Assembly: GCA_010405405.1 (NCBI GenBank)
Contig: MU004235.1
Span: 2,038,506 to 2,102,505, forward strand
DNA: 64,000 nt
Direction: 5' to 3'
Source: Microthyrium microscopicum
Taxonomy: Eukaryota
In this document: piece by piece, positions 12,047 to 64,000 of the stretch
Layout of the letters: every line of letters starts with the position of its first letter
How positions within the stretch are numbered: the first letter of the stretch is position 1
Notes under the pieces: model-generated
The model's input: the letters and a program-made list of their open reading frames with translations, nothing else
What the model was told of the DNA's origin: nothing
Database searches by the model: none
Program-made: the position numbers and the translations under genes

Positions 12047-12709
12047 TATATTATAAATTCTAAGATAAATCTTAGAAAAATATAGTATAAAGTATCTAGT
12101 ACTATATATTAAATAATATAATACTATTATAGCTATAAATNNNNNNNNNNACTAGAAAATTTCTAGTAAAATACTAAAATTATAAATAATTCTAGTAATA
12201 ATAGCTATAAAGCTAATAGATAATAGTAATTATATAAAGATAAATCAATATATTATTAATAAGATCTATATATTATTAGTATTTCTATAGAAATACTAAT
12301 AAATAATAAGATTTTTAAAAATAAAGTTAGTTAATTTACTAAGTAAATTAAGTAGAAAACAACTTACCTATAACTATAAAAGGCTAGTATAACTATAAAA
12401 TATAGTAGATATAATAGAAATAAAGAACTAGTAGTACTACTAATAGTATTACTAATATAATAGAAAGTAGAAGAGTATAAGATAGAATAAGATAGAATAG
12501 AATAAAATAAGATAGAATATAATTATTTCTAGAGGAGAACTACTACTACTTATATACAATTTAAAGAGCTAGTTTACTACGCTAACGTTCTTCTTATCTT
12601 ACTACCCTTACTACTATTTTAAGGAATAGTTATTACTAATCTAACTATTTAATAAGCAAGTGTTTCTAGACTATTTAATCTACGTTTAAATACGAGCTAA
12701 ATATAAGAT

Positions 12710-13495
12710 ATTTATAAGGGTTAGATTACAAGTAAGTATAAAAACCCTATAAGATAAGTATAGATTAAGGGCTAGATTATGCGTAATTACTAAGAATAGA
12801 TAAATAAGTAAGCAAGTATAGATCTAGAGCTAGGATAATACGTAAGTAAAGTAAGATTTACGTTCTAGATCTACGTTATCTATTTAGAATTATAAGGGTA
12901 GATTATAAGTAATTATAAGAACCTTATAAGATAAGTATAGATTAAGAACTAGATTACGCATAATTACTAAGAATAGATAAATAAGTAAGCAAGTATAGAT
13001 CTAAAGCTAGGATAATACGTAAGTTAAGTAAAATCTATAATATAGATCTTACTTAATTACTTATAATAATAAGGGCTAGATTACAAGTAATAATAAGTAT
13101 CCTAGTAAATAAGCATAGATCTAGGTCTAGATCTATTTACTTATAATCTAGCCTTTATAATTACAAATAGATAACGCAAATCTAGAACGTAGATCTTACT
13201 TAACTTATTTATTATCCTAGCTTTAAATCTATACTCACTTACTTATTTATCTATTCCTAGTAATTACATATAATCTAGCCCTTAATCTATACTTATTTTA
13301 TAAAGTTCTTATAATTACTCATAATTTAGCTTTTATAATTATAAATAGATACGCGTAGACTCTAGTATTTAATCTATATTAACTTACTTAACAACCTAGA
13401 TAGTAATATAACTATACTAATCTAATTTATAATATACGTAATTATATTAAGGGCTAATAGATAATAAGGGCCTTAGCATAGTAATCTAGCCCTTT
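12710..13495. repeat. Foldback-like array: ~180-bp units, direct then inverted, built from motif AAGGGCTAGATTAC...TAA
   Basis: Units at ~12715 and ~12893; reverse-complement copy ~13137-13355; palindrome ATAGATCTAG-GT-CTAGATCTAT at 13115-13136. Confidence 0.8.
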
Positions 13496-13499
13496 AGGT

Positions 13500-16045
13500 T
13501 ATCTACTTATACGCCTATTTCTACCCTAATAACTATTTTCTAACTTAATATATTTACTTCTACTTTTCTAGTACTTCACCTATTAGTATTTAATTATATA
13601 ATATACTTTTCTACTTAGTTGTTTTTACTCTTTTTAGCTATAGTATTAACTTTCCTTAAGTCGTACTTTTAAGTAAGTTATACCTTATTTTCTAATATTA
13701 TTTTTTTTTTACTTTTTTTTTAATTAACTAATTATTTTTAAAATAGTTAATATACAAGCTATACTAAGAGAAAGCATACTATGCTATAAGTAATAAATAC
13801 TTTTTTTAGTTATTTCTAATAAGTCTAGCAGTCCCTTAAACTTAAGATTAGCTTAGTAAAGCTTAGAAATTTATTAGTAAGTTTTTAGATTATACTATTA
13901 CTTTTATTTCTTTAAAAAGAATACACTCTAGTAAAACCTTCCTCTTAAAGAAGAATAGCTTACCTACTAGCTATACTTATAGCTATATAATCTTCTTTAA
14001 AGATAAAAGTAAGCTTCTTTATTATTAAAGCTTTCTAAAACGAAAGATCTAACTAAATAGTATTAAACTAGATATATTCTATATTTTTTATATTCTACAA
14101 CAAAAGGAACTAAACTACAAATATACCTTTTAGCTTAATTAGTAAGATACTACTATTCTAATTGTATTTAAAACACTAGTAATTTAGTCTAGTATTAAAA
14201 AACATTAATATATTTTACTACTAAAATTAGAAAGAAATCTTTACAATTTATAGCCAAAATAGTTTAGTTTTATTTCTAGCTATAATAATTAAATATAAGT
14301 AATAAATAACTACTATTTATTAATTATTAAGCTAATATCTAATAGGATTCTATAAGGTATTAATAATTAGCCTAAAGAATTTTAAAATATACCTAAAAAT
14401 TAACCACCTAAATAGGCTAATTCTACTACTAAATTTCCTTTTAAAAAAATACTTTCTTAGCCAAAAATACCTTATAGTTCTAAAGCTAAAACTAATAAAA
14501 ATAATATACTAGAATTACACCATTTAGAATAAATAATTTAGTAAAAAAAAGATAAAAAAAAGTAACAAAAAGAAACCATAGAAAGATATATAGTTACTAT
14601 AGTAAGTAATGACTATATTAATTAATATTTATACTAATTATATTTAGGCTAATAGAAGAAGAGTAGCAGCTAAAAAGGGAATTAATCTAGAAAGAACTAG
14701 ACCTACTAACTATTATTCTCCTAACCCTTTTTATAGTCTACAAACTACTCCTACTATTATAGAAGAAAAAGCTATAATATAAAATAATAGTATAGTAGAT
14801 ACTATAAAAGTAGAAAATATAGTAGATTTTAATAATTATAATCTAGATATTTATAGAGACTAGAAATATAATTTTTATTCTCTTATTTAAATTCTAAAAT
14901 TTATTAGTATAGCTTATATAAGTAAACTAATTATANNNNNNNNNNNNNNNNNNNNNNNNNNNNNNNNNNNNNNNNNNNNNNNNNNNNNNNNNNNNNNNNN
15001 NNNNNNNNNNNNNNNNNNNNNNNNNNNNNNNNNNNNNNNNNNNNNNNNNNNNNNNNNNNNNNNNNNNNNNNNNNNNNNNNNNNNNNNNNNNNNNNNNNNN
15101 NNNNNNNNNNNNNNNNNNNNNNNNNNNNNNNNNNNNNNNNNNNNNNNNNNNNNNNNNNNNNNNNNNNNNNNNNNNNNNNNNNNNNNNNNNNNNNNNNNNN
15201 NNNNNNNNNNNNNNNNNNNNNNNNNNNNNNNNNNNNNNNNNNNNNNNNNNNNNNNNNNNNNNNNNNNNNNNNNNNNNNNNNNNNNNNNNNNNNNNNNNNN
15301 NNNNNNNNNNNNNNNNNNNNNNNNNNNNNNNNNNNNNNNNNNNNNNNNNNNNNNNNNNNNNNNNNNNNNNNNNNNNNNNNNNNNNNNNNNNNNNNNNNNN
15401 NNNNNNNNNNNNNNNNNNNNNNNNNNNNNNNNNNNNNNNNNNNNNNNNNNNNNNNNNNNNNNNNNNNNNNNNNNNNNNNNNNNNNNNNNNNNNNNNNNNN
15501 NNNNNNNNNNNNNNNNNNNNNNNNNNNNNNNNNNNNNNNNNNNNNNNNNNNNNNNNNNNNNNNNNNNNNNNNNNNNNNNNNNNNNNNNNNNNNNNNNNNN
15601 NNNNNNNNNNNNNNNNNNNNNNNNNNNNNNNNNNNNNNNNNNNNNNNNNNNNNNNNNNNNNNNNNNNNNNNNNNNNNNNNNNNNNNNNNNNNNNNNNNNN
15701 NNNNNNNNNNNNNNNNNNNNNNNNNNNNNNNNNNNNNNNNNNNNNNNNNNNNNNNNNNNNNNNNNNNNNNNNNNNNNNNNNNNNNNNNNNNNNNNNNNNN
15801 NNNNNNNNNNNNNNNNNNNNNNNNNNNNNNNNNNNNNNNNNNNNNNNNNNNNNNNNNNNNNNNNNNNNNNNNNNNNNNNNNNNNNNNNNNNNNNNNNNNN
15901 NNNNNNNNNNNNNNNNNNNNAATTAATTTAATTAGTACAGACCCCAAATTAATACTAAGTTAATTTGAAAATCAAGAATTAAAATTAATTTAATTAGTAT
16001 TAATTCGAAATTAATTAAAAAGTACTAAATTAAATCACAACCCTG
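13500..16045 (+). mobile_element. Possible RIPed hAT DNA transposon remnant with right terminus at 16045
   Basis: De-RIPed W..LD..H(S)GE-like stretch ~13865-13940 and SQKYP(T)-like ~14459; right end reads CAGGGTTGTGAT on the minus strand, similar to the MITE TIR CAGTGTTGTAAT; spans a gap and no left TIR found. Confidence 0.3.
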
Positions 16046-48059: not shown

Positions 48060-48339
48060 CAGTGTTGTAATGAATACGTGAATAATTCAATTCTGAATAC
48101 GCCACTATTCCGAATATATCCATGAATAATCTGTAACTAGTGTTATTTATTCAGAAAAAGGAAATAGGAAACATAGAAAACACGCGAACGTGATCTAGCC
48201 TTTTCCTTCACTAAATTAGTGAGGCTGAGATAGTATTGCCACTAACCGTTAGTGGCCCCAAAACCTAGATATTATTCTGAATATGAATTGAATATGACTA
48301 ATTCATATTCAGAATATTATTCAATTCATTACAACACTG
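48060..48339. mobile_element. Intact hAT-family MITE (280 bp)
   Basis: Perfect 16-bp TIR CAGTGTTGTAATGAAT/ATTCATTACAACACTG; 8-bp TSD ATCACCAG (48052-48059, 48340-48347); subterminal GAATA/TATTC repeats. Confidence 0.95.
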
Positions 48340-48874
48340 ATCACCAGCTTCATCAGTAGAAGAGAAATCTGGCCTCAGACATTTGAGCTGACAAACGAGA
48401 TGTCGCATTCGATCGTCAGTGTGACATGACGCTTAATGCATAAACTATCAACGGCACGCGAGCGGCATTAGCGTATACTCAAGCTGCAAAGAAGGTCGAT
48501 GTTTTAGCAGACTTGAGCGAAATTGAATGACTTGTATGGAGCCAGCTAGGACTGGGTCCGTCCACGATGAATCCCGAGTCTGTCATTTTGCTCATTATGT
48601 GATGAAAATAGGCTTGTGAAGAAGCTAAGACGCCTGAAAAGCCGCTGTATGTGATCGCCTCGTCACAGCCGTAAACTTATTTCTAACTCATGGTGCTTCC
48701 AGTTAGATAAGTGGCTCGTTCCTCTTCTCTCGTTAGTCCTACTCTTCTTAGTCTTCATACACAAGGATCATTTTTCGTGTACAAGCTTGCAAGTCACTCA
48801 GAGGGTAGTTGCTGATAGTTTGATTCTGTCTCCCGAGTGTACTTTTGTCGTTACTGAGTTGTTATAATATCAAG

Positions 48875-50949
48875 ATGGCAACAGAATACGGGGAGAACTT
48901 CCCGATTATCAACAACCCACCTCACCATCGACGAAAGTTTGTTCTATGCTTTGATGGGACAGGTAACAAGTTCTCTGGAACTGATGTGGATTCCAATATA
49001 TTGAAGATCTACCGCATGCTAGATCGTACCGATCACACACAGTTTCATTATTATCAACCAGGAATTGGAACCTACGTTACTGGACATTCGCTATCTCACT
49101 CCGGAAAATTTGCTCGATTCAAGAGTTGGTATTTGAAAACAAAGGACTCAGCGATGGGCACATCACTGGACCAGCATGTCATGGGCGGGTACAAGTGCGT
49201 ATTCCAATCCGAATAGGGTACTTTCTACTTCGAACACTAAACTAATGATAGGTTTCTTATGAGGTACTACCGTCCTGATGATGAGATTTTCTTATTCGGA
49301 TTTTCTCGAGGAGCATATACCGCCAGATTTTTGGCAGAAATGATAGATCACATCGGACTATTGTCTCAGGGTAATGAGGAACTGATCCGATTCGGTAATT
49401 CTTGCTGTGTTAGTTCACTGTAATTATCTCTAACATGACTTAGCTTGGAAAACATTTCAAAAATGGCAGACACGTACCGGGGAATCAGAGAAGGATTCCG
49501 GAAAGAAGAAATATCTTCTAGACTTCATGTGCGCCTTTCGAGAGACTTTTTCACGTCCAGTTCGACCCATCCAATTCCTTGGTCTATTCGATACAGTCAA
49601 CAGTGTTCCTAGGTTCGAAAACGCACTCATGTCAAGAACAAAATTTCCTTACACCGCTCGAACCACGGCTCGATACATTCGTCATGCAGTCTCTATTAGT
49701 GAGCGTCGAGCAAAGTTCCGCCAGGATCTCATCGGAGAAAAGCCAAAAGGCCAGAACCCAAGAACTCAAGCAGTAGTACAGCGTTATCGAGCTCGGCCAT
49801 CTATAGATGAAGGAGTGACTGGAATAGAACGGGCAGACCGTGGAAGGCAACCAACTTTGCATGTCCCTGAGAGATATCGCGATGGCTCTGAAATTTCAGG
49901 CTTGCGAGCTTTGAGCCCGGGTTACGATCCACGGAGATCACGATCTGCTTCAAGAGGACGCCGTGAAACCCTTGCAGCAGTTCAAGCAAACCAAGCAGCC
50001 CAGGTTGAGGCAGAAGCCAAAGAGGAGAAGGAGCAGGATATACAAGAGGTTTGGTTCTTGGGAGACCATGCAGTAGGTGCACAGTACCAAGATGTCATTC
50101 AAAGATTCTAATTTAAAATAGGATATCGGCGGTGGCTGGACTCTGGAGGGTGAAGACGAAGTCGCCCTATCGCATGTACCACTGGTTTGGATGACCCGGG
50201 AAGCTCAACGGGCCGGTCTTCATTTCGATCCGGTCAAATTACGTGCGCTCCACTGTGCCCCCGAAGAGCATGATGCGGGAATAATCTGTAATACTGCTAA
50301 AGCATATCAAGCTGTCCCCCAAATTATTGAACCAAATCCTTCGGATGAAGACCTAGCTCCAAATGAGAAGCCCGCACACGAAATCATACCAGAGGCACCG
50401 AACAGCACTAACGATAAATCGGAGGACTCCCAACACGATGGTATAATCGTCGATGATCTGCCCGAGTTTCATCGAAAATTACATCTCGCAACCACCAAAG
50501 GTAAGATACATGACACGCTATGCTTTGGCAATATTGGCATTTCCGCCAGCTCCGTAATAGCCTGGAACTTTATGGAGTACCTGCCTTTTCGCCGAATGGA
50601 TCTTCAAGACGATGGATCATGGAAACCAATCGTTTGGCCACTTCCTAAGGGCGAAGTACGCGATATCCCAGATGATGTGGTGGTGCATAATAGTGTGATT
50701 AAAAGGATGCGATATGACGAAAAATGCCGACCAGGTAATCTCATTTTGGGTGGAGGTGGACGTGGGATCAGAATAGCCCCAAAAGAGTTTGGAACAGGAG
50801 AATGGAAGGTCTTAAGGGAGGAAGGTGATTTCGTTGGTGAGGTCTGGGTTCGAGTTGGAAAGCCTGTGGGCTCAAGGCAAAACTCAGGCATGAATGGGAT
50901 TAAGAGGGCCTTGACGGAGAAGAAAAACGGAATAATACATAATCATTGA
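48875..50949 (+). CDS. DUF2235 (Tle1-like alpha/beta-hydrolase) protein, multi-exon
   Basis: [77 protein letters not shown]. Confidence 0.92.
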
Positions 50950-60185: not shown

Positions 60186-60683
60186 GATTACATGTTTCCG
60201 TTCTCAACCAAACTACAATGAGTATGAAAACCCATGATCATTAAGGTTTATGTCCTAGTGTTTCGCAGGTGATTGGGAGGTGCTAATTCAGGGTTTCGCA
60301 AATTTTCTGATGTGTAACTAGGTTGTTGGTAGGCTGAGCATGTTTATATGTGGAAATAATGTGCTGCCTACTGGCGGACTCATTGTACAGTATACCTTCC
60401 CTAAAGGGTTCCGTCCATTCTCGTACTCCTCCTCGTTACGCGAGTAAGCACTAAGCCATTCAGATTGCGTAGTACTGGGCTTCCCTTGGCAGCCTTGACT
60501 AGATCTCAGATGACCTCTCTCTTTTGCTTACCTTATTGTTTGTATGAAGGCTCCGCACCTACGTATCGACTAATAAATCGTGTAAAGGTAACTTCTCTCG
60601 CGACGGCGTACCTGAACTGGTTTCTGTGTAGGTAAGACTCTTCATAGTTCAGCCAACTGACCTAATGAACGAATTTAGAAGCT

Positions 60684-62177
60684 ATGACCGCCGAAAATAC
60701 CCCTATCGACTCCGGATTAGAAGTTGTACGTCGGTCAACAGATCTGCCAGAGGTGGTTAACCATCCACCAGCGCCCGAATTTCAAATTGGAGAGCGCTAT
60801 GAGAAGGGTCAAAGTGGTGCATTACCGCCTGAATATACCGATCAACATCCAGGAGCCCCTACCAAACCGCGTCGCAAAAGAACTCTCTGGATCGTCTTCG
60901 CGGTACTATTCATAATCGTTGCTATTGTTGCTATTGTGGTAGGCGTCGTATTAGGAACAAGGGAAAGTAAAGATACTACCAAGAGTGGGAGTACCGCAGG
61001 TTCATCAAGTGGCGATATAAATACAACTCTACTACGAAAAAACTCGCCGCTAGCAGTGACAGGATGGAGAAACGGTTCCAGTTTGAATGTAAGGCTATTC
61101 TACCAAGGCGACGATGGGAATATACGGATGAATGGATACGAGTCTGGAAGTAAAAAGTGGACTGCTTCACCACCAATAGACACCGCAAAGGCAGGCACAG
61201 CTCTTGCCGCTTCATGTTTCAATGCAAGCAATTTCTTCGCGGCTCCGAATGCCACGGGTTCTAGTTCGCTCCTTGTCAGTTCATCTAGGTTGGTCCTCTT
61301 CAACAACAATGAGCTGACTCTTTACTAGTATTTTCAGATAGAGCTATTTTACACAAATAACGCCAGTTTAATAAAAGAGTGGAACTTTAACGAAAGCTCT
61401 GACACCGGAGCGAGTGGTAGCATCTCTAGTCTTACTTTTCGAACTGGCGCTTCATCCCGAATGTCCTCATACTGGCCAAGTCTCGTCTTTCAGGATGACT
61501 CTGGAACATTGACTGAGATATTTTACAACTCGTCCGTCTCGCAGCAAGCATGGAATCAGCGAGGACTAGGACTTGTTGGCAGAAACAATTCCGGATTAGC
61601 AGAGGTTCCATTAACAACCAATTTGGCGCAAAATACAAACACACCAGTGGACTTCGGGATGGGGATCTTCTACCAGAGAGATGATTTCAAACCTTTTGAT
61701 GCCACAAGAGGAACCAATTTAGGCGCATGGTCAGCAAGTGAGTAATTCTTTATGCATGGAACACAATTCCTCCTAGACACACAAGAAAAAACCAGTTCTG
61801 ATACTCATGCAGATAATTTAAATGTTTCAATTCCTCAGAACTCTTCGATAGGCTCCTTTTCTGTCCCTCGAGCTGGGGACTCAGCGAAGAGGACAAATCT
61901 TTACGTTCTATGGCAGGATGCGTCAGGCAACATTCAATATAACTGGCAAGATGACAACTCAGGGTGGAAAGGCCCGGCTACTTCAGACGCTTTGAAAGGA
62001 GCAGACCTTGGCACCTCAATTGCATGCCTCACGCCTACAATCTGGCCAGTCACAGATCTACAGCCCAAATTTGACTTGAGCAGGTGTTACTATCAGGTTG
62101 GCGGAAGCCTACGCGAAGTTCAATTCGACGGATCTAACTGGAACGTATTGGGATTTGTGCCGTTGACAGGATCGTGA
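60684..62177 (+). CDS. Type II membrane protein with fucose-specific-lectin-like beta-propeller; introns ~61275-61329 and ~61739-61813
   Basis: TM LWIVFAVLFIIVAIVAIVVGVVLG; repeats SPLAVTGW...RLFYQGDDGNIR, GTALAA, LYVLWQDASGNIQ, GTSIAC, YYQVGGSLREV. Confidence 0.75.
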
Positions 62178-62299
62178 GACGAAATGAAGGGCTTGCAATT
62201 CTAACATCCTGCATTAGCGGGCGCGTTGGTCAATCTTTGAAGAATTATAATACTAGATGAAAGATATTTATGCCCAAAACCGGAATCCCGAACGCTGTC

Positions 62300-63140
62300 A
62301 TGTTCAAGCTGCTCTGAATTGCACATCGATTTTGCTCAATGCCAAAACTATGCGCACTTATCCAGCTCACAAAAGCCTTTTAGCTATCCAGCCCCAAATG
62401 TTTACCCGATCCATTGTTTCTAGCAATATCTGTGCAGCGGCAATCCCCCGTCTATTACCCAGATTAACCGAGTGGATAAACGGGGGACTTACAAGCTTCA
62501 AAAGAAGCAATGCCCCGCCGAACGATATATCAAGAGTCGCCCTATCACAGATTAGCGGCGTGGTTTGCAAAGCCTCCAGTGGACACATAAGTGCCCACAG
62601 CGGAAACATTCATTGCTCAAGTTGTTCGTTCAACATTGTACCTCATCCAACACCCTACCGCCCTTAAACCTTGCGTCAGATTGAACTGGTGTCGCAAGTC
62701 CATTGTTGGATTAATCACAAAGATTTGACTTTGTATCAGTTCGAAAGAACCGAGTGTCTCTAATCAGGTATCTAGTTAAAGAACCTGAAAAGATAGTCAC
62801 CGCCGCCCTCTTGAGACCGCACGACAACGTTATACTCGTAGCAGAACCGCAAGTACCCAACCCGCTTCGAGAGCAGGGATTTGTCAATGACACGAATGTC
62901 TGACGCGACCCTCGAAAGGACCGGCAGCCCTCGAAAGGACCGGCGGCCCTCGAAAGGGCCGCAAGGAGGGAGGAGGAGGATTGCAGTCAGTTGCAAGCTA
63001 AGCTAATCTACGGAGGCTCGTCACGTAGATGAAAATTTGTTGTTGATTGTTGTGGAGTGGTAAAGGAAAGCAGCGGGGAAGGTTTTTGTTTTGAGGCGAC
63101 GAGACGACGAAGGCAAATTTCTCTGTGGGAGGGGCAAATA
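62300..63140 (-). ncRNA. Candidate structured non-coding RNA (unassigned)
   Basis: About ten hairpins read by eye on the minus strand, four with UUCG loops, many G.U pairs; upstream TATA-like and pyrimidine/CA-rich leader; no convincing ATG ORF. Confidence 0.45.
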
Positions 63141-63707
63141 TAGCTTGGACCTTTTTATTGTGATAGTTGAAGGAACAATTGCCAATACTGGCATTTGAGG
63201 AAGGAGCTCACGAGCTGTTGTTGGTCTTAGGCAAGAGCAGCTCAGATGTGGCAGCCGCGACACACAGGTTATGGCAAGCACCAAGGACTTAGCAAATTGC
63301 AAGGCAACTTCTTATTACCAACAGAGAAGCCACCCCATTTCCAACAGTCTAGAGAGCATGCTGTTGCATTTTTCAAGCCTTGCATTGATGTACGAACCTT
63401 TCATAAGGCTAGGAATTTCAGCCTTGTGCTATTTCATCACTGGGCTCTGATTGGACAACCAATATCACAGGGGTTTTATTCCCGATAAGGTTACTATTTC
63501 AGACAGTGTAAGGAAGTAGTCAAAGTCTTGGAATTTAGATTGTCTATAAAGTTAGCTAATCAGTAGGCAGCTTATCTCCCATGGTGGAGAACGGCGAACT
63601 CCGCCTCTTGTGCTCCAGTACTTCTTCTTATTCTTTACCCATCTCGACATCATAACAAGGCTTGCTTCAAGTACATCAGATAATATTGAGGTCGTTGCAA
63701 AAGCAAA

Positions 63708-64000
63708 ATGGGTTCCCAGCCGGTTCAATTCAGCATCCCAACAGTCGATTTATCTACATATCTCCGCGACCCTGAAGCAGAGCAAGCGAATGAAATCGTG
63801 TCAGCCATTAGAGACGCTTGTATCACAAGCGGATTCTTCCAAATAACCGGACATGGCATATCTACAGAGCTGCAGGACGCAGTGTTCAAGAGCGCGGAAG
63901 TCGTATTCAAGCTCCCAGTAGAAGAGAAGATCAAGCTCCAATCGGCCACAGATGGCCGAGGCTACGAAGTAATCGGAGCACAAACACTGGAGGTCGGGAT
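63708..64000 (+). CDS. 2OG-Fe(II) dioxygenase (IPNS/DIOX_N family), runs off the window
   Basis: IPTVDLSTYL...AIRDACITSGFFQITGHGIS...FKLPVEEK...RGYEVIGAQTLE. Confidence 0.9.
   Translation, partial: MGSQPVQFSIPTVDLSTYLRDPEAEQANEIVSAIRDACITSGFFQITGHGISTELQDAVFKSAEVVFKLPVEEKIKLQSATDGRGYEVIGAQTLEVG

Follow-up and report, generated by a model that had tools for sequence, protein, structure and literature searches.

A hairpin-dense, strand-specific candidate structured RNA in the spacer between a lectin-like gene and a dioxygenase gene of a fungal genome

Large, densely structured non-coding RNAs are rare outside the classical ribonucleoprotein particles. Similar stem-loops repeated on one non-coding RNA occur in the Xist A-repeat, in the roX stem-loops and in the bacterial CsrB and RsmZ RNAs. 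The telomerase RNA of filamentous ascomycetes is an RNA polymerase II (Pol II) product of 1.2–2 kb and is highly structured, whereas fungal transcripts of the cryptic or Xrn1-sensitive unstable type (CUT/XUT-like), which comprise convergent antisense and divergent promoter-upstream long non-coding RNAs (lncRNAs), are usually not notably structured. Fungal structured RNAs found by comparative genomics are mostly short motifs (Li and Breaker 2017, PMC5640933). The same source describes the fungal SART-1 and ies6 motifs as single hairpins of tens of nucleotides (nt), tied to particular genes, with covariation in 11–20 species, and assigns them to the antisense strand by G.U pairs versus A-C mismatches and by UNCG versus CGNA loops (PMC5640933). 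Here we describe a region of ~0.8 kb, positions 62300–63140 of a 64,000-nt stretch of Microthyrium microscopicum DNA from contig MU004235.1 (hereafter the window), whose minus strand folds into a near-continuous run of stem-loops. It lies in a spacer of ~1.5 kb between two plus-strand genes, a lectin-like gene and a dioxygenase gene. Like the SART-1 and ies6 motifs as that source presents them, it is a candidate filamentous-fungal structured RNA opposite a neighbouring mRNA, and the G.U and UNCG/GNRA strand arguments apply to it; unlike them, it extends over ~0.8 kb with about a dozen hairpins, comes from a single genome and stands beside unrelated genes. Since its neighbours encode a fungal-lectin-like protein and a DIOX_N dioxygenase, membership in either motif, as described there, was ruled out. 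That the region specifies a new structured RNA is credible but unproven.

Folding, transcription and coding status of the spacer

On the minus strand, 62300–63140 reaches a minimum free energy (MFE) of -295.5 kcal/mol, against -252.3 ± 6.4 for dinucleotide shuffles (z -6.77, a fold that none of the 20 shuffles equalled), and z was -5.63 when the test was repeated with 55 shuffles for each strand. The plus strand stays at z -1.04, a level that 3 of 20 shuffles attained, and at -1.18 in the repeat. The strand-specific folding proposed in an earlier, preliminary description of this DNA is thus borne out and goes beyond dinucleotide shuffles. Minus-strand z lies below plus-strand z in all 7 consecutive 200-nt segments spanning 62300–63099. 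When 200-nt segments are slid across the region and its flanks, the 7 that start between 62300 and 62900 have minus-strand z of -2.75, -4.29, -1.16, -1.88, -2.89, -2.81 and -2.06, and the remaining 24 of the 31, in the flanks, lie between -1.88 and +1.88. For comparison, background values from the rest of the window, sampled sparsely (91 segments on 2 strands, 200 nt per 650), have a mean z of 0.00 and a standard deviation of 1.43, and 2.7% of the 182 values fall below -2.75. The candidate region is an extended, strand-specific outlier within the window. Refolding of 7 domains separately, with 200 shuffles, clearly favoured the minus strand for 4 of them, was symmetric for 3 and favoured the plus strand for none, and the partition-function fold of the minus strand over 62225–63200 contains 31 helices of at least 4 bp at a pairing probability (P) of at least 0.6, with 61% of the nucleotides well determined.

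The two strongest other foldable loci of the window, at ~12700–13300 and ~48100–48400, behave differently, being equally strong on both strands. Because DNA palindromes should fold strand-symmetrically and the candidate is asymmetric, we regard it as different in kind from these control loci. The first of them, where z falls to -8.0 on the minus and -7.2 on the plus strand (at 13000–13199), may be an inverted repeat or foldback element in the DNA; it lies ~0.6–1 kb from a gap of 10 N at 12141–12150. The second has z of -4.3 to -5.2 on both strands and lies ~500 bp upstream of an open reading frame (ORF) that starts at 48875, part of a DUF2235/Tle1-like gene whose Pfam match spans 49434–50111.

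The stretch is present, wholly or partly, in six sequencing runs from three studies, none of which is recorded as RNA, and the RNA label of run X1 is a guess. This run holds a 2603-nt contig with three GT..AG joints, at 60627/60679, 61274/61329 and 61737/61813, that were seen in X1 only and are absent from the DNA runs; because the DNA runs do not have these joints, we take the contig to derive from spliced RNA. Its last piece covers the spacer up to 63314, and the candidate region sits on RNA-derived sequence. Contigs carry no strand, and one that spans two genes is no proof of a single transcript. X1 is uncovered over ~63315–63672, a gap that was not used as evidence. Run X6, from another study, covers only 62333–62625 and 60705–61012, both identical to the window, and therefore gives no information on divergence.

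The region belongs to no known RNA family, as the preliminary description had supposed. A scan of the whole window with Rfam 15 (4227 models, among them U snRNAs, RNase P/MRP, SRP, snoRNAs, telomerase RNAs, riboswitches and ribozymes) returned 0 matches at the gathering score. When 61800–64000 was scanned up to an expect value (E) of 10, four chance-level matches appeared (E 3.4–7); the sole one inside the region, to Atu_C3, is a 20-nt hairpin of 13.7 bits, where the gathering score is 100, and one to sR7 at 63416–63472 (E 6.1, 13.5 bits against 37) lies outside it and was taken as chance. A likeness of UAAGUCCCCCG to the CR-I element of RNase MRP/P was rejected, since a distance of just 20 nt separates it from the partner strand and none of the P/MRP models matches. 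By eye, no box C/D-type UGAUGA...CUGA pair was found within 62300–63140. The claimed lack of a telomerase-template motif also stands: the minus strand of 62178–63700 has none of the six 6-nt permutations of CCCTAA, the plus strand has one ACCCTA at 62652, the nearest CCCTAA is at 60399, and no template permutation of at least 8 nt was found, TTAGGG repeats being assumed for the host.

As far as it can be tested, the region is non-coding. Stop codons interrupt all six frames across it, the longest ORFs with an ATG being 136 amino acids (aa) on the plus and 80 aa on the minus strand. None of the 6 ORFs of at least 40 aa has a Pfam match below E 0.1, and the two that were searched, the 136-aa and the 80-aa ORFs, have no homologue among ~5.8 billion clusters.

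Architecture, setting and copies

All the stems named in the preliminary description occur where it had put them or no more than a few bases off, most of them recovered at P 0.87–1.00. The closure of a multibranch domain by CCTTGCG/CGCAAGG, which it had also suggested, is not used in the fold, in which CGCAAG pairs locally with CUUGCG at 62698–62693. The parts of the candidate RNA, and the contig piece on which it sits, are as follows:

61813–63314, no strand assigned: last piece of the 2603-nt X1 contig, with 0 differences from the window and no joint; the same contig carries the lectin-like gene
62300–63100, minus strand: core, a continuous run of stem-loops (minus-strand shuffle z and seven consecutive 200-nt segments)
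63134–63145, minus strand: TATA-like element GCTATATTTGCC, with AATAAAAAG immediately upstream, read by eye; putative promoter
63036–63110, minus strand: pyrimidine/CA-rich, little-structured stretch (segments starting at 63000–63200 have minus-strand z of -0.45 to +1.88)
63006–63030, minus strand: hairpin AUCUACG/CGUAGAU of 7 bp (63030–63024/63012–63006), P 0.97; symmetric, z -2.65 on the minus and -2.77 on the plus strand
62905–62962, minus strand: three tandem 19-nt units (Tandem Repeats Finder, 19 nt x 2.8 at 62909–62961; repeat family D1, three copies)
62883–62904, minus strand: hairpin GUCA-GACA-UUCG-UGUC-UGAC, P 0.91–0.94
62861–62877, minus strand: hairpin CCUGCU-CUCGA-AGCGGG, P 0.87
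62764–62788, minus strand: hairpin UCAGGU/ACCUGA, P 0.99; symmetric, z -3.46 on the minus and -3.61 on the plus strand
62716–62753, minus strand: two adjoining hairpins (62736–62753, P 0.97; 62716–62735, P 0.93), the first being the fourth CGGUYCUUUCGA copy (repeat family D2)
62670–62698, minus strand: hairpin CUUGCG/CGCAAG, P 0.96
62572–62607, minus strand: extended hairpin containing GUGGGCAC-UUAU-GUGUCCAC, with 4 G.U pairs, P 0.92–1.00 (62598–62579, P 1.00)
62426–62528, minus strand: three-way domain with two closing stems, a GCUUC-UUUU-GAAGC hairpin and a long 14+6-bp stem, P 0.96–1.00
62287–62356, minus strand: 3′-side hairpins, less certain, P 0.68–0.80
62225–62270, no strand assigned: AT-rich palindromic stretch, 50–95 nt past the lectin-like stop (palindrome I8 at 62241–62254, and reading by eye)

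With 200 shuffles each, the domain 62424–62530 has z -5.46 on the minus and -3.82 on the plus strand, the domain 62569–62610 -5.12 and -2.51, the tandem array 62903–62966 -4.62 and -0.66, and the domain 62713–62756 -3.88 and -1.55. The long stem at 62442–62489 is a 20-bp rod, made of 14 bp and an inner 6-bp stem with one small interruption (P 0.97–0.99). The three tandem units had been described as three UUCG hairpins; the repeats are there and each is able to fold, so that both three separate UUCG-capped hairpins and one nested hairpin can form, but the MFE structure is a single nested hairpin of 24 bp. The TATA-like element near 63140 is likewise present as described, though inside the RNA-derived contig.

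A module, CGGUYCUUUCGA, occurs four times, three copies in tandem and one 171 nt away. The string TTTCGA is found 4 times against 0.33 expected, a count equalled in 0 of 1000 shuffles. UUCG loops cap four minus-strand hairpins, where the plus strand would read CGAA, and the tandem units differ from one another by C/U changes only, each of which converts a G-C pair to G.U on the minus strand.

The segment 62444–62502, which holds the rod and part of the adjacent hairpin, is matched by a diverged copy at another locus of the genome, which differs at 8 of 59 letters (51/59 alike) and was seen in runs X1 (in a 1183-nt contig), X2, X4 and X6. This copy lies on a DNA contig of single-copy depth. In its flanks, read by eye over loose ends of 30 letters, one side is alike again at 14 of 16 positions after a 5-nt indel and the other is weak. 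Because the indel is not a multiple of three and falls inside both overlapping ORFs, it speaks against coding conservation, and the likeness fits non-coding rather than coding conservation. There is no further copy of 62444–62502 inside the window, and in DNA runs X2 and X4, which span the whole stretch, one other locus matches 60500–64000 at 80% likeness or more, besides two 18-nt bits. A multi-copy transposable element, such as a miniature inverted-repeat one (MITE), is ruled out by this single other locus, by the lack of a copy in the window and by asymmetric folding unlike that of the two palindromic controls. ARAGORN found 0 tRNA genes in the whole window, and thus no sign of a tRNA-derived short interspersed element or tRNA-like structure.

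Relatives were sought by pattern in metagenome and viral contigs. The two-arm pattern of the long stem matched 12 metagenome loci (G+C 0.36–0.71), which were judged to be chance, with no Rfam family and no likeness beyond the pattern save in one; this one (L009:306–322, on a contig of G+C 0.65) is identical over 17 nt to the long stem's 3′ arm and the bases that follow, 9 of these nt being forced by the pattern, and it too was put down to chance. In viral contigs, neither the two-arm pattern nor a two-unit pattern of the tandem array had any match (0 for each), and of 143 pattern matches to the C-terminal exon of the lectin-like gene in metagenome contigs 0 were confirmed.

As to the setting, the window looks like filamentous-fungal nuclear DNA. 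Its introns are short (51–75 nt) and GT..AG, and its other genes encode INSIG, synaptojanin, GFAT-like, zinc alcohol dehydrogenase, DUF2235/Tle1-like, beta-lactamase-fold and methyltransferase proteins. The upstream neighbour, the lectin-like gene, is on the plus strand, has a weak Fungal_lectin match in Pfam and ends with a stop codon at 62175–62177. Its model, taken from run X1, has exons 60556–60627, 60679–61274, 61329–61737 and 61813 onward, with the ATG at 60684, a first intron that precedes it and a coding sequence of 454 codons by our own arithmetic; a sequencing-adapter tail adjoining 60556 suggests a sharp 5′ end there. The downstream neighbour, the DIOX_N dioxygenase gene, is also on the plus strand and has its ATG at 63708. 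A separate X1 contig begins at 63673, 35 nt upstream of this ATG, and a plus-strand CTATAAAG near 63540 and a CCAAT at ~63451–63455 can be seen by eye. Apart from the 10-base run mentioned above, the window has a run of 985 N at 14936–15920, and the six long 'ORFs' listed at 14891–15963 are artefacts of it.

Competing explanations

What kind of transcript would account for these observations? We favour, with a probability of roughly 0.4, an independent minus-strand Pol II lncRNA that is convergent with the lectin-like gene and presents UUCG-capped hairpins. This reading rests on the folding signal, its strand asymmetry, the non-coding sequence and the RNA-derived contig, and from it we infer the strand, ends, polymerase and function of the transcript. 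A structured lncRNA had already been put forward in the preliminary description, which is upheld by strand-specific folding, the lack of an Rfam family and of a coding signal, and the RNA-derived contig, but not by covariation among the internal repeat copies.

Several results weigh against the lncRNA. The X1 contig fits a plus-strand lectin 3′ untranslated region (3′-UTR) of 1.1 kb and a minus-strand RNA overlapping the lectin-like 3′ end equally well. It also reaches 63314, ~170 nt upstream of the TATA-like element and, because it continues that far, the element need not mark the sole start. No orthologue was found in the scans of metagenome and viral contigs, and the four module copies give no covariation signal, with 3 one-sided and 0 two-sided pair changes (a score that 370 of 500 shuffles reach). 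Minus-strand pairing includes G.U about as often (40 of 271 pairs) as shuffles do (36.4 of 260.5), TTCG itself is no more frequent than chance would give (7 occurrences, 4.63 expected, matched by 162 of 1000 shuffles), pairing of the 5′ with the 3′ parts does not exceed that of shuffles (z -1.09, 78 of 500), and an 11-bp helix that closes the domain is marginal (z -2.35, 7 of 500). An ATG-free stretch of 491 nt on the minus strand, though rare in shuffles (7 of 2000), is common in genomic windows (57 of 382). An inverted repeat at 62294–62315/63234–63255 (22 nt, 73%) was weighed as a possible terminal repeat or closing stem but dropped, a perfect core of 9 bp being expected by chance ~2.7 times per 1.2 kb by our own estimate.

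One alternative is that in this contig the plus-strand lectin-like mRNA simply continues into a long (~1.1 kb) 3′-UTR or read-through tail, and that the foldability of the opposite strand is functionless. The contig indeed continues without a break from the spliced lectin-like exons past 62177 and as far as 63314, and no joint, adapter or poly(A) in it points to a second transcript. Nevertheless, the plus strand folds no better than its shuffles, and because it stays at shuffle level this explanation leaves the minus-strand signal unaccounted for. A 3′-UTR of 1.1 kb would be long for a filamentous fungus, and 50–95 nt past the stop there is the AT-rich palindromic stretch, which in our reading is of the fungal 3′-end type. 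We hold this alternative to be somewhat unlikely.

Alternatively, the hairpins may reflect a regulatory array of palindromes at the DNA level, for example sites for Zn2Cys6 dimers serving the dioxygenase promoter ~750 bp away, with transcription incidental. Each of the three 19-bp units has an inverted repeat flanked by CGG and CCG, which we take to resemble Zn2Cys6 sites; the array lies upstream of the dioxygenase gene, whose X1 contig starts at 63673, and 3 of the 7 domains fold equally well on both strands. However, DNA palindromes should be strand-symmetric, as the two controls are, whereas here the balance tips towards the minus strand in the other 4 domains and over the region as a whole, and the array spans just 57 of ~800 bp, which makes this explanation of the region distinctly unlikely.

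The diverged second copy of 62444–62502 and the internal duplications (the 19-nt unit three times, and the fourth module 171 nt away) would also fit a two-copy element, duplicated or mobile and partly foldback, that has since decayed and whose hairpins are inherited rather than maintained. We think this quite improbable, given that X2 and X4 contain only one other matching locus besides the two 18-nt bits, and thus no multi-copy family, that there is no tRNA head and no transposase or reverse transcriptase ORF or Pfam domain, and that no terminal inverted repeat is significant, the best being the 22-nt one with 73% complementarity. A precursor of small RNAs, in which the 20-bp rod and its paralogue would be hairpins of microRNA-like RNAs (milRNAs) cut by Dicer, is very improbable for the region as a whole. 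By what we take to be the criteria for milRNAs, the 14+6-bp stem with its one small interruption and high P would suit such a role, and no part of the region but the rod is preserved in another transcribed copy, yet the rest of the region consists of hairpins of 6–9 bp, too short for Dicer. Lastly, a small protein-coding gene on the minus strand, or an mRNA with a long structured leader, is scarcely credible in spite of the 80-aa ATG ORF at 62609–62367 and the 491-nt AUG-free stretch upstream of 62703, since no Pfam match and no homologue of the 80-aa and 136-aa ORFs was found in the searches given above, the contig has no splice joint able to join ORFs, the paralogue has its 5-nt indel inside both ORFs (by eye) and the AUG-free stretch is ordinary among genomic windows.

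Proposed working and relation to known RNAs

If the region does give rise to a minus-strand lncRNA, the transcript would be ~0.8–1.1 kb long, with about a dozen well-defined stem-loops, would start between ~63314 and 63050 and would end in the AT-rich stretch, near 62230–62300. In this position it would diverge from the dioxygenase gene and converge on the lectin-like gene, with whose 3′ end its own would overlap. A minus-strand RNA that overlaps the lectin-like mRNA in this way is plausible given the AT-rich palindromic stretch past the stop, and 62225–62270 may be a candidate shared 3′-end region of the convergent transcripts. Such an overlap could offer a route to cis-antisense regulation. 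Dense local structure would make the RNA compact and resistant to nucleases, and the hairpins on display, with four UUUCGA loop modules, four UUCG loops and one 20-bp rod, might act as a platform for RNA-binding proteins. A more specific proposal, which we consider rather unlikely, is that of a structured nuclear RNA of ~0.8–1.1 kb belonging to a small family (at least 2 transcribed loci sharing the 20-bp rod), whose hairpin array would be a multivalent docking platform for proteins and a fungal counterpart of the hairpin-array scaffold and decoy RNAs.

If the lncRNA is real, structure probing and protein pull-down would be well worth applying to a stand-alone RNA of ~1 kb that has z near -6 on one strand, a repeated hairpin module and a paralogue that is itself transcribed, and such an RNA could reveal how lncRNAs in a convergent or divergent position influence adjacent genes. 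Should the transcript prove to be plus-strand only, the locus would be a warning that folding scores from a single genome, even strand-asymmetric ones, do not show RNA function.

How does the candidate relate to the larger RNAs mentioned at the outset? Like CUT/XUT-like transcripts, it would be divergent from an active promoter (the contig start at 63673) and convergent with the 3′ end of its neighbour; unlike them, it has z of about -6 on one strand. It would resemble telomerase RNA in being large, structured, non-coding, made by Pol II and encoded between genes, and differs from it in having no template permutation on the minus strand, no Rfam telomerase match and a diverged second copy. With milRNA precursors it would share a hairpin of ~20 bp that is duplicated in the genome and sits on a non-coding RNA of Pol II type, although here the hairpin makes up just 48 nt of ~800. 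Set beside the hairpin-array RNAs, it has 3 tandem copies and 1 dispersed copy of its module, no sequence relation and no known or predicted binding protein; like those scaffold and decoy RNAs, it would show the same loop several times on one molecule, in this case through its 4 UUUCGA modules.

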